Below, in pieces: positions 7,404-17,107 of a stretch of 32,000 nt of DNA (position 1 is the first letter of the stretch; every line of letters begins with the position of its first letter). Source of the DNA: Demequinaceae bacterium (GTDB taxonomy: Bacteria; Actinomycetota; Actinomycetes; Actinomycetales; Demequinaceae); assembly GCA_965250005.1 (NCBI GenBank), contig OZ252279.1:30001-62000 (forward strand). The letters are read 5' to 3'. Below the pieces are notes generated by a model, which saw only the letters and a program-made list of their open reading frames with translations, did no database searches and was not told where the DNA came from. The position numbers were made by a program, and so were the translations under genes.

Positions 7404-8012
7404 TCAGGTCGTGGCGCGATCGAACTCAATCTTGGTCGCGAGGCGGCGGTACTCGAGCTTGATGCAGCGGTTCTGGATCACGGTCAGGCCCGCGTTGACG
7501 GCCGCGGCTGCGGCGCCCTCGTGCGTAATCCCGAGCTGCATCCACACGGACGTAGCGCCAACCGTGATCGCGTCGTCCACCACGGGCGGGACGTGCTCGG
7601 GGCGCCGGAAGATATCGACCATGTCTGGCACCACGGGCAGTTCCGCCAGCGAAGCGTAGAATGGGTGTCCTAGCGCCTGCTGGCCTGCCGCAACGGGGTT
7701 GACAAAATAGAGTTTGAAGTGAGTGTTGTCGAGTAGCCACGCTGCCACGCTGTAGCTGGTGCGCATGGGGTTTGGGGACATGCCGACCACGGCGACCGAA
7801 ACGGTTTGGGCAAGGAGCTCGGCGAGGTCATCGTCGTCGGGCGCGTGACCGGATCCCGCCGGCGACGGAACGCAAACCTCCGCCGGTAGGATCGCGGCGC
7901 CCAGCAACTCGAGTCCGGGTACAAACTGCTCGTGTTCCGTGCGAACCGGCTCTGCTGTGGTGGGGAAAGCATCGCCCGAATCGGGCGACGGCATTCCTGG
8001 AAGCGTATCCAT
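7404..8012 (-). CDS. CoA-binding domain protein (YccU-like) with ~60-aa N-terminal acidic/Pro-rich extension
   Basis: The core LAELLAQTVSVAVVGMSPNPMRTSYSVAAWLL...VDIFRRPEHVPPVVDDAI..GATSVWMQLGI matches the CoA-binding (Rossmann-like) family pattern. No SD precedes ATG 8012, so the start is uncertain. Confidence 0.8.
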   Translation of the reverse strand: MDTLPGMPSPDSGDAFPTTAEPVRTEHEQFVPGLELLGAAILPAEVCVPSPAGSGHAPDDDDLAELLAQTVSVAVVGMSPNPMRTSYSVAAWLLDNTHFKLYFVNPVAAGQQALGHPFYASLAELPVVPDMVDIFRRPEHVPPVVDDAITVGATSVWMQLGITHEGAAAAAVNAGLTVIQNRCIKLEYRRLATKIEFDRATT

Positions 8013-8306: not shown

Positions 8307-8972
8307 TCAGATGTAATACATTGCGGGCTCGTGCGCCTCGAACACCGGCGTCCGTCCCGCGTCGGCCAGCGCCCTATCCGGGTGTATGTGAGAATCTCCC
8401 GAATCCACCGACGACGCCGCAGTCCCGGCCTCGACAGCCTTGGGGTGCTCGCGAATAACCGCAGGAATCCCGACGGCTGTTGCGCCCTCGGGGATGTCCT
8501 TCACCACCACGGAGTTAGCGCCAATGCGCGCGTCGGATCCGATGTTAACCGGACCGAGCACCTTGGCTCCGGCGCCGATGACCACGCGGTCCCCAACCGT
8601 GGGGTGACGCTTGCCTGGCGACATCGTCGTGCCGCCAAGTGTGACCTGGTGGAACAGCAGCACGTCGTCGCCAATCACCGACGTCTCGCCTACGACTACG
8701 CCCATGCCGTGGTCGATGAATACTCGGCGCCCAATGACGGCACCCGGGTGGATTTCGATGCCCGTCGCAAGCCGCGCGTGCTGAGACAGCAGGCGGCCAG
8801 GGACGCGCATTCCGTGGGTCCACAGCCAGTGTGAAACCCGGTGATACCAGAGCGCCTGGACGCCTTGATAGGACAGCAGCACCACAAAACTGGAGCGGGC
8901 CGCAGGGTCGCGCTCGCGGGCGGCGCGAACATCCTCGCGGATGCGCCCGATCACCCCTACCTTCTTGCTCAT
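8307..8972 (-). CDS. cysE: Serine O-acetyltransferase
   Basis: The 221-aa ORF has the N-terminal RERDPAA motif followed by left-handed beta-helix hexapeptide repeats ([44 protein letters not shown]). Confidence 0.9.
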
Positions 8973-8990: not shown

Positions 8991-9926
8991 CTAGTCCATC
9001 AGGTCGGCGTAAAGGACCGAGGTCAGGTAGCGCTCACCGAACGACGGGATGATGACCACGATGGTCTTGCCCTTGTTCTCGGGACGCTTGGCGACCTCGG
9101 TCGCCGCGTGGATAGCCGCGCCAGAGGAGATTCCCACGAGCAGGCCTTCTTGACGGGCTGCCGCGCGCGCGGTGGCGACGGCGGTCTCCGCGTCCACGTC
9201 GATGACCTCATCGATGACGTCGCGGTTGAGGATTTCCGGGATGAAATTGGCGCCGATGCCTTGAATCTTGTGCGGGCCAGGCTCGCCGCCGTTGAGCAGT
9301 GGGGACTCCGCAGGCTCAACCGCGATGATCTGGATGTCCTTGTTCTTCTTCTTGAGGATCTCGCTCACGCCGGTGATGGTTCCGCCGGTGCCGATGCCCG
9401 CAATGAAAATGTCCACCTTGCCGTCAGTGTCGTCCCAGATTTCGACCGCGGTGGTCTTGCGGTGAATCTCCGGGTTGGCCTCGTTGGAGAACTGGCGCGC
9501 GAGGATCGAGCCCGGGCGCTCCTCGGCGATGGTGTTGGCCGCATCGATCGCGCCCTTCATGCCGGTAGGGCCGGGGGTGAGGATGAGCTCAGCGCCGAAC
9601 GCGCGAAGCAGGGCACGCCGCTCCTTCGACATGGTCTCCGGCATGGCCAGCACCACGTTGTAGCCGCGGGCAGCACCCACCATCGCGAGCGCAATGCCGG
9701 TGTTGCCGGAGGTGGCCTCAACAATGGTGCCGCCCGGCTTGAGCGAGCCGTCCTTCTCTGCGGCGTCGACGATCGCGACACCGAGGCGGTCCTTCACGGA
9801 GCTTGCGGGATTGTAAAACTCGAGCTTGCCGAGCACAGTCGCGCCCGCGCCCTCGGTGAGTTTGTTGAGTCGCACCAGCGGGGTGTTGCCAATGAGCTTG
9901 GTGACGTCGTCGTAGATGTTTGCCAT
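8991..9926 (-). CDS. cysK: Cysteine synthase A (O-acetylserine sulfhydrylase)
   Basis: The 311-aa ORF has the PLP lysine motif [19 protein letters not shown] and [14 protein letters not shown] lies upstream of the ATG. Confidence 0.95.
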
Positions 9927-10008
9927 GGTCCAGTCCTTAACTGTTGTGCCGCTGTGACGTGGTGCCGCATCGGCTGTAGATGTGAAGTTCTTGCGTGAGA
10001 GCAGGGTG

Positions 10009-10083
10009 GTATCCGGTCGGGATACGTGAGCGAGCGCTGGCGCAGGCGGGATTGGCCTGAAGCCTGGGGAAGTGCCAGCGCTC
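10009..10083 (-). promoter_or_regulatory. Two stem-loops directly following the Cys-rich uORF (candidate attenuator structure)
   Basis: On the minus strand, a 10-bp stem pairs 10083..10074 (GAGCGCTGGC; the first G is the last base of the TAG stop) with 10041..10032, leaving a 32-nt loop. It is followed by GTATCC-CGACC-GGATAC at 10025..10009. Pairing was checked by hand. Function is inferred. Confidence 0.4.
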
Positions 10084-10139
10084 TAGAGACAGCAGCAGCA
10101 GCCCACGCACGTGCACATGCACATGGAGGGCGAGAACAT
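10083..10139 (-). CDS. Polycysteine leader peptide (uORF) of the cysK-cysE operon: MFSPSMCMCTCVGCCCCL
   Basis: Read by hand: ATG TTC TCG CCC TCC ATG TGC ATG TGC ACG TGC GTG GGC TGC TGC TGC TGT CTC TAG. Seven of 18 codons are Cys. The uORF is on the same strand as cysK and ends 156 nt upstream of it. An internal ATG at 10124 gives a 13-codon version. There is no SD. Confidence 0.6.
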   Translation of the reverse strand: MFSPSMCMCTCVGCCCCL

Positions 10140-10141
10140 CG

Positions 10142-10203
10142 AGGCAGGGGCGGACGCAGTCACGTTGGTGACGCGGAGCGTATGAGTGCTCACGGCCCTG
10201 CCT
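10142..10203. other. Nested inverted repeats forming a three-way-junction-like fold (unassigned RNA structure)
   Basis: An outer 8-bp stem pairs AGGCAGGG (10142-10149) with CCCTGCCT (10196-10203). It encloses hairpin CGC-A-GTCAC GTTG GTGAC-GCG (10155-10175) and hairpin GAGC...GCTC (10176-10191). The strand and function are unknown. Confidence 0.3.
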
Positions 10204-10428
10204 TTCCGATGGTCTGGTGGCCTCAGGGTAGCGCGCCAATGGCCGATGTGCCAATGTCCCCACGGCAGATGGGGCTGTTTTCTCCAGGGGCAGCCATAGT
10301 TATCCTGGCCGAAAGGCGCTCCGGCGCACGATCAACGCGGCGGCGTGGGAAGCCCCTCTTCCGCGTTTGAGCATCCGGCGCTAGTCTGGCCGAGTAGTCG
10401 CGACGACGATGTCGCCTGAGGAGGGACC

Positions 10429-10884
10429 ATGGGTTACCCGACGCTGACGGTTGCGCGCGAGATCAAGGCGTCGCCCGCGGCGGTGTGGAAGGTCTTGACT
10501 GATCTCGACAACGCACCCAAGAACATCAAAGGTATTGACGCGGTCGAACGCGTCGATGGAAAGGGTTATGCGGTGGGCGTCAGCTGGCGAGAGACGCGCC
10601 GCATTTTTGGCAAAGCCCAGACCGAGCTGATGGAAGTCGCGACTGCAGACAAGCCCAAATCGACCTCGGTGGTATCGGAGTCGTCCGGCACGGTGTTCAC
10701 GACCAAGTTCACGCTCGCCCCTGGCTCATCTAGCACGCGACTCGAATGCGAGTTCAGCGCAGTCGCGGGTGAACTGACCGTGGGCCAGCGAATCTTGACC
10801 GCGATCTTCTCGAAAGCAGGAATGAGCGCGAGCAAGAAAATGCTCGAGCAAGACTTGGCGGATATTGCTGCCGCCGCGGAGTAA
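10429..10884 (+). CDS. SRPBCC (START/polyketide-cyclase-like) family protein
   Basis: The 151-aa ORF has GAGGAGGG just upstream of the ATG. Its N-terminal pattern IKASPAAVWKVLTDLDNAPKNIKGIDAVE is typical of SRPBCC ligand-binding proteins. Confidence 0.8.
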   Translation: MGYPTLTVAREIKASPAAVWKVLTDLDNAPKNIKGIDAVERVDGKGYAVGVSWRETRRIFGKAQTELMEVATADKPKSTSVVSESSGTVFTTKFTLAPGSSSTRLECEFSAVAGELTVGQRILTAIFSKAGMSASKKMLEQDLADIAAAAE

Positions 10885-11482: not shown

Positions 11483-12211
11483 CTATTCTGCGGTGCGCAG
11501 CTTGAGTTTGCGCAGGCGGCGGACGGCGAAGAGCACCGCAGCCACCGTTGAGGCAGCGATGAGGACCATGCCAGTGGTGAAGCTCACGGCTGAGAAGACG
11601 CCCCACTGGATGCCATCCCCACCGAGCAGTTTCTCTGCAGCGGCGGCGGCCCATTGCCGGACGCTCACGGTCTGGATACCGGGGACAAACGCTGCGAGCG
11701 TGGTCTCCCACAGCAACGCGTAGATCAGGCCGATGATAACTGCGTTTCGCGACACAATCGCCATCGCGAAGAAGATGGACACGTACGCGATCGACGCGAG
11801 AGCGGCGGAGATGCCGAAGGACGCGGCGAGCTTGGCGTCCTGGTCGCCGGCGAGCAGAGTCGACAGCACCACCGGCACCACGCCCAGCAACATCGCCGAT
11901 GCGTAGGCAACGGCGAGCTTGGACAAGGCAATCGTGCGGCGCGGGAGCGGTTTGGCGAGCAGGTAGGCGATGGACGAGTCCTCGATCTCGGGGCCGATCA
12001 CGCCGGTGCCGATCAGCAGGCACAGCAACGGGATGACGGTGCCTAGTGTGAAGTTGCTGGTGAGCCCCGCGGTGGTGGCGGGGTCGCCGCCGGAGCCCCA
12101 GCGCGTGAGGCCCGCGACCAGCAGCATCAGCGCGGGCAGGGTGGCGAGCAGCCAGGCGCGCTTGCTCCCGAGCAGACCGCGGGCCGTCATCTGCATCACG
12201 ACGATGTTCAT
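11483..12211 (-). CDS. ABC-2 type transporter permease (second permease of operon)
   Basis: The 242-aa polytopic hydrophobic protein is the last gene of the four-gene minus-strand ABC operon. Its ATG overlaps the stop of a 6-codon mini-ORF. Confidence 0.8.
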   Translation of the reverse strand: MNIVVMQMTARGLLGSKRAWLLATLPALMLLVAGLTRWGSGGDPATTAGLTSNFTLGTVIPLLCLLIGTGVIGPEIEDSSIAYLLAKPLPRRTIALSKLAVAYASAMLLGVVPVVLSTLLAGDQDAKLAASFGISAALASIAYVSIFFAMAIVSRNAVIIGLIYALLWETTLAAFVPGIQTVSVRQWAAAAAEKLLGGDGIQWGVFSAVSFTTGMVLIAASTVAAVLFAVRRLRKLKLRTAE

Positions 12212-15131: not shown

Positions 15132-15205
15132 TGGAGCGGGCGACGGGAATCGAACCCGCGTGATCAGTTTGGAAAACTGAGGCTCTACCATTGAGCTACG
15201 CCCGC
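15132..15205 (-). tRNA. tRNA-Gly (anticodon UCC), CCA encoded
   Basis: Hand-folded cloverleaf: acceptor GCGGGCG/CGCCCGC, D arm GCTC-AATGGTA-GAGC, anticodon arm TCAGT-TTTCCAA-ACTGA, T arm GCGGG-TTCGATT-CCCGT, 3' TCCA. Confidence 0.9.
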
Positions 15206-15297: not shown

Positions 15298-15371
15298 CGG
15301 GGTGTAGCGCAGCTTGGTAGCGCATCTGCTTTGGGAGCAGAGGGTCGCAGGTTCAAATCCTGTCACCCCGA
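15298..15371 (+). tRNA. tRNA-Pro (anticodon UGG), CCA not encoded
   Basis: Hand-folded cloverleaf: acceptor CGGGGTG/CACCCCG, D arm GCGC-AGCTTGGTA-GCGC, anticodon arm TCTGC-TTTGGGA-GCAGA, T arm GCAGG-TTCAAAT-CCTGT. Confidence 0.9.
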
Positions 15372-15391
15372 CAACGAGCACGAACGGCGCG

Positions 15392-15769: not shown

Positions 15770-17107
15770 GTGACTAGCGCCATCGAACAAATTGACGCCA
15801 CAACCGTCAAACTCACCGTCACCCTCACCGAAGAAGACATTGCGCCCATGCTCGCGCACGCCTACGAGCACATTGGGGAAGAGGTCACCATCCCGGGGTT
15901 CCGCAAGGGCAAGGTCCCCAAGGCGATCCTCGAGCAGCGCATCGGCAAGCCCGCGGCGCTCGAGCACGCCATCAACGACGGCCTGCCCCAGTGGTACGGT
16001 GCTGCGGTCGAGGAGCAGGAAATCCGCCCGTTCGGCCAGCCCGAAATCGACCTCGTCAAGATTCCCGGCGCTGTCGAGGGAGACGAGGGCCTAGAGTTCA
16101 CCGCCGTCGTCGAAACCCGTCCGCAGGTGGCGCTGCCCAAGATCAATGGCATCACGCTCACGGTCGAGCCCACCGAGGTTTCGGACGCCGACGTCGACGC
16201 GCGCATGGACACGCTCCGGGAGCGGTTCGGCACCCTCGTCACTGTTGACCGTCCCGCGGCCGACGGCGACTTCGTCACCATCGACCTGGGCGCCAAGATC
16301 GACGGCAAGGACGTCGACACGGTCCAGGGAACGTCGTACCAGGTGGGCTCCGGGAACATGCTCGAGGGCCTGGACGAAGCGCTCGTTGGCTTGAGCGCCG
16401 ACGAAGAGACGAGTTACGAAGGTCCGCTCGCTGCCGGCGACCACGCAGGCGAGACCGCGCAGATCCACCTCACGGTCACGGCCGTCAAGGACCGAGAGCT
16501 CCCCGAAGCGAACGATGATTTTGCTCAACTGGCCTCGGAATTCGACACGGTGAAGGAGCTACGCGAAGACCTGCGCGAGCAGGCTGGTCGCATCCAGGCC
16601 AACAACCAGGCCGTTGAGGCTCGCGGAAAACTGCTCGAGCACCTCGTAGAAGAGACCGACTTCGAGCTTCCTAAGAAGGTTGTCGAAGCTGAGGTTCATC
16701 AGCACCTCGAGGGCGAGAGCCGGCTCGAAGACGACGTTCACCGCGCTGAGGTCACCAAAGAGGCGCAGGAGGCTCTGCGCGCGCAGATCCTGCTCGACCA
16801 GCTAGCGGAGGATCTTGCGATCGAGGTCGAAGAGAACGAGCTGATGGACTACATGCTCAACGCCTCGCGCCAGTACGGCATGGACCCCAACACGTTCATT
16901 GAGCAGGTGCAGAAGGCAGGTCAGGTTCCGTCCATGGTCGCCGAGGTTGCTCGCTCCAAGGCCACCGCGTTCGCGCTGCGCCGTATCAAAGTTAAGGACA
17001 CGGCTGGCAAGGCCGTCGACCTGAGCGACGTGGTCGGCAAGGACGAGGACGGCGGCAAGAAGTCCGCGGACAAGAAGGCGCCAGCTAAGAAGGACGCTGC
17101 CAAGTAA
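15770..17107 (+). CDS. tig: Trigger factor
   Basis: The 445-aa ORF starts at GTG with AGGAGCAGCA upstream. It has the ribosome-binding signature GFRKGKVP and a Lys-rich C-terminal tail. Confidence 0.95.
   Translation: MTSAIEQIDATTVKLTVTLTEEDIAPMLAHAYEHIGEEVTIPGFRKGKVPKAILEQRIGKPAALEHAINDGLPQWYGAAVEEQEIRPFGQPEIDLVKIPGAVEGDEGLEFTAVVETRPQVALPKINGITLTVEPTEVSDADVDARMDTLRERFGTLVTVDRPAADGDFVTIDLGAKIDGKDVDTVQGTSYQVGSGNMLEGLDEALVGLSADEETSYEGPLAAGDHAGETAQIHLTVTAVKDRELPEANDDFAQLASEFDTVKELREDLREQAGRIQANNQAVEARGKLLEHLVEETDFELPKKVVEAEVHQHLEGESRLEDDVHRAEVTKEAQEALRAQILLDQLAEDLAIEVEENELMDYMLNASRQYGMDPNTFIEQVQKAGQVPSMVAEVARSKATAFALRRIKVKDTAGKAVDLSDVVGKDEDGGKKSADKKAPAKKDAAK

Follow-up and report, generated by a model that had tools for sequence, protein, structure and literature searches.

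We analyzed a 32,000-nucleotide (nt) stretch of DNA from a Demequinaceae bacterium (GenBank assembly GCA_965250005.1, contig OZ252279.1, positions 30,001–62,000), hereafter the window. Its minus strand carries the operon cysK-cysE and, upstream of cysK, a small open reading frame (sORF) in which cysteine codons crowd toward the stop codon. The element formed by this sORF, by a hairpin at its stop codon (P1), and by the C-rich spacer that leads to cysK was the subject of our study. We consider it fairly probable that the element is a ribosome-mediated, cysteine-responsive leader of cysK-cysE, with an output that is most likely transcriptional and exerted via Rho. The two genes of the operon are separated by 18 nt, and the cysK product was 85% identical to the CysK proteins of Demequina, which were its nearest relatives in a CysK scan that used one genome per species. 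The features of the locus on which the argument depends are listed here, in window coordinates.

8307..8972 (−): cysE, serine O-acetyltransferase, 221 amino acids (NCBIfam TIGR01172, 240 bits, above cut-off)
8991..9926 (−): cysK, cysteine synthase A, 311 amino acids (NCBIfam TIGR01139, 455 bits, above cut-off)
9934..9938 (−): Shine-Dalgarno (SD) sequence of cysK, AAGGA, 7 nt before the ATG at 9926, read from the sequence
9927..10031 (−): C-rich, G-poor spacer from P1 to cysK (37% C, 21% G), a candidate Rho-loading region resembling a Rho utilization (rut) site
10032..10083 (−): hairpin P1, with stem GAGCGCUGGC...GCCAGCGCUC, its first base being the G of the TAG stop
10079..10092 (−): invariant block CTGTC-nn-TAGAGCG (CTGTCnnTAGAGCG), which takes in the final Cys codon and the last sense codon together with the stop and the base of the hairpin
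10083..10193 (−): leader ORF, 36 codons plus TAG, encoding MSTHTLRVTNVTASAPASMFSPSMCMCTCVGCCCCL from the in-frame GTG at 10193, and containing the 18-codon ORF 10139–10083
10089..10121 (−): cluster of seven Cys codons among 11 (C25, C27, C29, C32–C35), read from the sequence
10201..10207 (−): SD sequence of the leader ORF, GGAAAGG, 7 nt before the GTG at 10193, similar to the GGAGG/GAAAGG/GGAAGG found at the same distance in relatives
10225..10230 (−): putative −10 hexamer, TACCCT (TANNNT type), conserved as TAGCCT/TACCCT/TAGATT, 31 nt before the GTG at 10193
10249..10254 (−): putative −35 hexamer, TTGGCA, proposed from a reading of the sequence and from conservation in Demequina-like loci

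A preliminary description of this DNA had reported an ORF of 18 codons, seven of them Cys and four of these consecutive, in a 502-bp intergenic gap upstream of cysK. Re-reading the minus strand from 10139 to 10083 bore this out. The ATG at 10139 opens the series ATG TTC TCG CCC TCC ATG TGC ATG TGC ACG TGC GTG GGC TGC TGC TGC TGT CTC TAG, which encodes MFSPSMCMCTCVGCCCCL; an internal ATG is present at 10124, the TAG occupies 10085–10083, and this stop lies 156 nt upstream of the cysK ATG at 9926, within a gap that runs from 9927 to 10428. The description had also taken the ATG at 10139 as the start codon, without an SD sequence and possibly leaderless, and this part was not upheld by the comparison with relatives. 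In 28 of 28 relatives with a definable start, a strong SD sequence stands 6–10 nt before an ATG, GTG or TTG, and the start lies 18–40 codons before the stop. Because the GTG at 10193 is the only codon in the window that fits this pattern, the SD-less ATG at 10139 is very probably an internal codon of the longer ORF. The N-terminal residues LRVTNVT of the longer ORF align with LRVTDVT of a metagenome locus, L131 (MSDNALRVTDVTSPS...), and this alignment therefore supports the upstream start. Read from GTG 10193, the four consecutive Cys codons are codons 32–35 of 36, all seven Cys fall within the last 12 codons, and the last of them is a TGT at 10091–10089, two codons before the stop.

A promoter-like pair of hexamers, TTGCCC/TTGGCA and TAGCCT/TACCCT at a spacing of 17–18 nt, is kept upstream of the sORF in the Demequina-like loci, with the −10 hexamer retained as TAGCCT/TACCCT/TAGATT in L001, L002, L004, L086, L102, L171, L178 and L185. 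As the putative −10 hexamer of the window stands 31 nt before the GTG at 10193, transcription would start so as to leave a 5' untranslated region of about 25 nt, and the transcript would not be leaderless.

Relatives of the element were sought by taking the top matches of the CysK scan and examining the sequence upstream of cysK for small same-strand ORFs that have Cys codons close to their stop. Results showed a Cys-rich sORF upstream of cysK in 16 genome loci, with the sORF stop 124–237 nt before cysK. These loci came from Demequina (three) and a related metagenome-assembled genome, Actinotalea, Cellulomonas, Oerskovia, Cellulosimicrobium, Promicromonospora and Myceligenerans, so that the element spans three families of Micrococcales: Demequinaceae, Cellulomonadaceae and Promicromonosporaceae. 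By the same criteria, no such sORF was found at the Microbacteriaceae, Intrasporangiaceae, Micrococcaceae and Propionibacteriales loci of the same CysK list. A Propionibacteriales locus, L032 from Propioniciclava, has two overlapping small frames at 2364–2560 (…CPCCCRA, …CVCCCLSV…), about 450 nt upstream of cysK, which may be the type of Cys leader reported for P. acnes in 2005. A separate scan of metagenome contigs with the pattern CTGTCKSTAGAGCG-N30-60-CGCTC gave 120 matches, of which about 22 had a Cys-rich sORF; the remainder were chance matches that lacked one. In each of the 20 metagenome elements whose flanking sequence is long enough, cysK lies 94–202 nt downstream, and among the approximately 22 true elements none was found before a gene other than cysK where the flank allows a call. 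The sORF is presumably co-transcribed with cysK.

The 28 sORFs with clear starts have a median length of 29 codons (range 18–40) and contain 2–9 Cys codons, all inside the last 22 codons. Consecutive Cys (CC, CCC or CCCC) stand close to the stop in most relatives, and a few have spaced Cys codons only (e.g., C-R-C); the residues other than Cys are not conserved. The preliminary description had suggested a comparative test of the leader on the cysK-cysE strand, namely whether its in-frame run of Cys codons is kept in related genomes while the surroundings drift. This is what the 16 genome loci and at least 20 metagenome loci revealed: the cluster is retained, and the remaining peptide and the flanks drift. 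The second-to-last codon (position −2) is Cys in 28 of 28 sORFs and is always TGT, whereas in 11 genes of the window 21 of 24 Cys codons are TGC. Except in two leaders from Cellulosimicrobium, the stop is TAG. Since TGT at −2 and TAG are the rarer choices in these high-GC genomes, their retention suggests a constraint at the nucleotide level, or else the use of a codon read by wobble.

The block CTGTC-nn-TAGAGCG is identical in 15 of 17 leaders (the window plus the 16 genome loci), and this set is unbiased with respect to the block because its loci were found by CysK homology. The block is invariant in alignment A1 and occurs once in the window. Hairpin P1 is likewise predicted in 15 of the 17 leaders, in every case with the same geometry: a Cys codon, one sense codon, UAG, and a hairpin that starts from the G of UAG. 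Predicted energies are −17 to −43 kcal/mol and overall lengths 27–78 nt, with loops that differ greatly in length; the P1 of the window folds at −25.2 kcal/mol (z −3.76 versus shuffled sequences). That is, the loop varies while the register to the stop is fixed, which suggests an RNA element that relates to the ribosome rather than a DNA operator. Two Cellulosimicrobium leaders (L012, 2718–2798, and L013, 2723–2803) have a Cys-rich sORF (…SCCRCLGCR) with Cys at −2 and a TGA stop, and lack both the TAGAGCG block and P1.

We built a covariance model on the end of the sORF and P1. The model gave exactly one match per leader in 37 loci, and no second copy elsewhere in the window. In the resulting alignment, 89.7% of cells were paired, and five of ten stem pairs showed compensatory double changes (e.g., GAGCGCUGG/CCAGCGCUC versus GAGCGUCC/GGACGCUC versus GAGCGCC/GGCGCUC), with covariation above that of all 500 column shuffles; because the alignment was fitted to the structure, these figures lean towards structure. 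Rfam gave no match in the window at gathering thresholds, and at E ≤ 10 over 9880–10460 only a chance match to a microRNA model on the other strand.

Downstream of P1, the spacer is unusual in its composition. Its (C−G)/(C+G) value of 0.279 reaches the 99.6th percentile when every 105-nt window of the 32 kb, on either strand, is considered. Spacers of related loci are variable in sequence and in length (49–173 nt), and C exceeds G in 35 of 35, with a mean value of 0.26. Within the sORF, the stretch that precedes the Cys cluster is just as rich in C (0.26), whereas the cluster itself has a value of 0.03. In composition, and in composition only, the spacer thus corresponds to the rut region expected of Rho-dependent leader switches. 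A consensus scan found no site resembling an intrinsic terminator on the cysK strand, and none of the 35 spacers has a U-run after P1 or after any other hairpin. RNAalifold applied to 10 whole Demequina-like leaders recovered P1 only, with no conserved antiterminator, and neither ribosome-state folding nor duplex tests revealed a conserved partner for either arm of P1.

Just after P1, the minimum free energy (MFE) fold of the window contains one further small structure.

10009..10025 (−): small hairpin P2, GUAUCC-cgacc-GGAUAC

Hairpins similar to P2 (GGUAUCG/GGCAUCG/GGAAUC) stand at the same place in Demequina-like loci, and RNAalifold recovered no conserved P2. In several Demequina-like leaders (L001, at about 2916–2940, and L005, L102, L171, L178, L185 and L086), GCCC(C) follows P1 and is itself followed by a small hairpin with an SD-like GGAAUC/GGUAUCG. 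Many loci also have a G(C/U)GUU motif at this small hairpin, and no start codon follows the hairpin. These P2- and P3-like hairpins and the GYGUU motif are found in some loci only and are not general.

Two explanations would deny the sORF any role as a sensor. According to one, a GCTGCTGCTG-type repeat in non-coding DNA simply happens to read as Cys. The window does contain eight other CCC runs, all of them off-frame artefacts of GCTGCTGCTG-type coding sequence, and another stretch dense in Cys, CCWAWCRWCCRLC, is read out of frame at about 11854–11892 (−) inside an ABC-2 permease-like gene (11483–12211, −). Because such runs arise off-frame in GC-rich coding sequence, the run of Cys codons, or their density, says little when taken alone. 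The run upstream of cysK, however, is intergenic and shares its frame with a start led by an SD sequence and with a conserved stop. A CCCC run occurs once in all six frames of the window, against a first-order Markov expectation of 0.04 per window, and 13-codon stretches that hold six or more Cys are expected 0.025 times per window. The decisive evidence against chance is the same arrangement upstream of cysK in 16 related genomes and at least 20 metagenome contigs, that is, in at least 36 independent loci, and these comparative data effectively refute a chance ORF, which we regard as extremely improbable. According to the other explanation, the sORF encodes a Cys-rich micropeptide that binds metal or acts in redox chemistry and is co-expressed with cysK-cysE. 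The sORF does have a good SD sequence and is conserved as an ORF, and an independent activity of some polycysteine peptides was left open in the study that showed that leaderless polycysteine sORFs act as attenuators that respond to cysteine in M. smegmatis (Canestrari et al. 2020, bioRxiv 10.1101/834739; Mol Microbiol 114:93). Yet the length, the number of Cys and every non-Cys residue vary freely among the relatives, the peptide has no NCBIfam match, and what is conserved is a set of nucleotides (CTGTCnnTAGAGCG, TGT at −2, the UAG stop) together with an RNA hairpin, rather than a peptide. We therefore judge a functional micropeptide to be very unlikely. The element is functional-looking, which is to say that we take it to be real and regulatory, and the general interpretation as a cysteine-sensing leader ORF to be right.

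The remaining alternatives concern how such a leader would act on cysK. In translational attenuation of the Ms5788A type, the vacated poly-Cys tract would pair with RNA before cysK and hide its ribosome-binding site, and a stalled ribosome would free the SD sequence. No other mechanism has been demonstrated by experiment for a polycysteine sORF; Ms5788A is the one case in which a Cys tract was shown to pair with an SD, and the authors cautioned that such pairing might not apply to every locus (Canestrari et al. 2020, bioRxiv 10.1101/834739). The MFE fold of the window offers a partial counterpart.

9944..9978 (−): predicted partner of the poly-Cys tract in a long-range closing helix, in the window only

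Here GCUGCUGCUGCUG pairs with 9978–9944 (positions −52 to −18 relative to cysK) at −36 kcal/mol (z −2.9 versus shuffles), just upstream of the SD sequence. This helix ends 18 nt before the cysK ATG without covering the SD AAGGA, and it is not conserved across the family. Constraint folding with no ribosome, with a ribosome at the stop, and with a ribosome at each Cys codon left the predicted accessibility of the cysK SD unchanged at about 0.5–0.6 in 15 of 15 leaders. Nor was the Cys tract more complementary than shuffled sequences to the initiation region of cysK (mean z +0.23 over 32 loci) or to the whole spacer (mean z −0.15 over 33 loci), and the 3' arm of P1 paired with the cysK initiation region no better than shuffles family-wide. 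In the P1-less Cellulosimicrobium variant, the MFE fold pairs CCUGUUGUCG with CGACAG beside the cysK SD, but this also was not significant (z about −1). An SD that is predicted to be accessible in all states, and a Cys tract with no special complementarity to it, speak against sequestration of the SD and, with that, for an output at the level of transcription; translational attenuation would moreover leave the conserved P1 and the C-rich spacer without a role, and we consider it unlikely as the mechanism of the family. Less likely still is that P1 serves as an intrinsic terminator or pause hairpin that lacks a U-tract, and that a ribosome at the −2 Cys covers the GAGCG base of the hairpin, giving steric antitermination similar to that of pyrBI. 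P1 does begin exactly at the stop codon, and the Cys at −2 is universal. A ribosome extends about 12–13 nt 3' of its A-site codon; with the TGT at −2 in the A site it would reach about 4 nt past the stop, onto the invariant GAGCG. However, no locus has a U-run after P1, and mycobacterial RNA polymerase needs a U-tract in vitro. This arrangement would also give the wrong sign of regulation, because starvation would stall ribosomes first at the earlier Cys codons (−13 to −3 in the window), leaving P1 intact.

Our preferred reading, a cysteine-responsive leader that acts through Rho, would combine the features as follows. A sigma-A-type promoter would produce a transcript with a 5' untranslated region of about 25 nt, the SD-led ORF of 36 codons, P1, the 105-nt spacer, and cysK with an accessible SD. 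If Cys-tRNA(Cys) is plentiful, the ribosome would reach the stop, and would have to unwind the entire 5' arm of P1 to bring UAG into its A site. If Cys-tRNA(Cys) is scarce, the ribosome would stall in the Cys cluster, at least three codons upstream, and P1 would remain folded. From this geometry, in which the stop position opens the hairpin and an upstream stall spares it, P1 would report the passage of the ribosome through the Cys cluster. Under replete conditions, termination at the stop would open P1 and expose about 145 nt of single-stranded, C-rich RNA (the P1 loop, its 3' arm and the spacer), on which Rho could load to stop transcription before or early in cysK. Under starvation, the stalled and queued ribosomes and the folded P1 would limit the loading or translocation of Rho, and cysK-cysE would be transcribed. 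Because the SD is predicted to be accessible, intrinsic terminators are absent and the untranslated leader is uniformly C-rich, Rho-dependent premature termination is the most likely output, although we are less certain of this step than of the leader as a whole.

Several observations weigh against this scheme. The C-rich spacer would be exposed with or without a stalled ribosome, and there is no conserved alternative structure, given that P1 alone emerged from RNAalifold, to explain how it is protected from Rho. Some spacers are as short as 49 nt, which is short for a rut site alone. P1 could have a different role, such as a hairpin that protects a 3' end, a pause hairpin or a U-less terminator. 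A generic sigma-70 scan made no call at the hexamers of the proposed leader promoter. Finally, the predicted pairing of the poly-Cys tract with 9978–9944 may be a local add-on, and a translational component is possible at this locus.

Comparison with known systems places the element among the Cys-codon leaders and sets it apart from each of them. The preliminary description aptly linked it to the mycobacterial polycysteine attenuators, but its suggestion that such a leader was undescribed for cysK-cysE does not stand. A polycysteine sORF, Rv2334A, precedes cysK1-cysE of M. tuberculosis (Canestrari et al. 2020, bioRxiv 10.1101/834739), and leader peptides with Cys runs had been predicted in front of cbs in B. 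longum and of cys operons in Mycobacterium and P. acnes (Seliverstov et al. 2005, BMC Microbiol 5:54, PMC1262725). Given these precedents, the kind itself, a leader with a run of Cys codons in front of cysK-cysE, is already known; the searchable literature yielded no description of one in Micrococcales. Similar to the mycobacterial sORFs, the present one is a short, unannotated ORF with a C-terminal run of Cys codons, on the same strand as, and just upstream of, genes of cysteine metabolism, which are cysK-cysE in the case of Rv2334A also, going by its description. The presumed logic is shared as well, in that stalling limited by Cys-tRNA raises expression of the operon. Unlike the leaderless mycobacterial sORFs, the sORF of the window has a canonical SD and a predicted 5' untranslated region of about 25 nt, as judged by sequence proxies, and a conserved hairpin abuts its stop codon, which differs from the mycobacterial sORFs as described. 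The host lineage is Micrococcales rather than Mycobacterium, and there is no family-wide complementarity of the Cys tract to the downstream SD, in contrast with Ms5788A.

For the Cys leaders that have no terminator, Rho-dependent termination was proposed by analogy with tna, and neither conserved hairpins nor conserved poly-Y motifs were found (Seliverstov et al. 2005, PMC1262725). The present leaders resemble that set in having a Cys run near the stop, no hairpin with a U-run, and a pyrimidine- or C-rich region before the first gene. They differ from it in the covarying hairpin at the stop, in the excess of C over G in 35 of 35 loci, and in belonging to lineages outside the set. The trp, his, leu and ilv attenuators also have a leader ORF with regulatory codons for the product with which the pathway ends, but the terminator hairpin with a U-run and the conserved, mutually exclusive antiterminator of those systems are missing here, and attenuation of the trp/his/leu type, as put forward in the preliminary description, does not fit this locus. 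In E. coli, tnaC-tnaAB and speFL-speF are Rho-dependent leader-peptide switches in which a free small molecule is sensed through an arrest peptide and the stalled ribosome masks the rut site. As in tnaC and speFL, a leader ORF is followed here by an untranslated, C-rich region, and we propose that the action of Rho depends on where the ribosome stands at the ORF's 3' end. Unlike those switches, the present leader would take its signal from tRNA charging at Cys codons, and its stop is separated from the C-rich region by a hairpin.

Among the neighboring genes, the one at 10429–10884, divergent to cysK, encodes an SRPBCC/polyketide-cyclase-like protein. In the intergenic region between it and cysK, on the opposite strand from the leader and just upstream of the putative leader −35 hexamer, a terminator-like site occupies 10258–10284 (+), with CCCCACGGCAGATGGGG followed by CTGTTTTCTC; it may be due to chance, because no gene on the plus strand ends close by. 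A gene at 7404–8012 (−), about 300 nt downstream of cysE and in the same orientation, encodes a protein with a CoA-binding domain (PF13380) that could be functionally linked to CysE, which uses acetyl-CoA. Farther away, two divergent tRNA genes, tRNA-Gly(UCC) at 15132–15205 (−) and tRNA-Pro(UGG) at 15298–15372 (+), lie upstream of the gene for trigger factor (15770–17107, +); neither of the pair is a tRNA-Cys.

The sORF was unannotated, as small regulatory ORFs often are, and the covariance model can be used to annotate this motif, which is absent from Rfam. We raise only tentatively, as a possibility that we think somewhat doubtful, that a separate, hitherto undescribed class of cis-regulatory RNA of Micrococcales is made up of the sORF, P1 and the C-rich spacer, in which the position of the ribosome at the Cys-codon cluster is read out by the hairpin at the stop codon, as it opens or closes, and by Rho-dependent termination. 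If true, its mechanism would differ both from the trp type and from the mycobacterial type with SD sequestration, and it would answer the question, unanswered in 2005, of how 'terminator-less' Cys leader peptides work. The control of cysteine biosynthesis in Actinobacteria is poorly understood outside the mycobacteria, and the present locus extends Cys-codon leader ORFs to Micrococcales, where they would control the core cysK-cysE operon. An easily mutated hairpin that is fixed to the stop codon offers a handle on how Cys leaders without terminators pass the effect of stalling downstream, be it through Rho or through translation.

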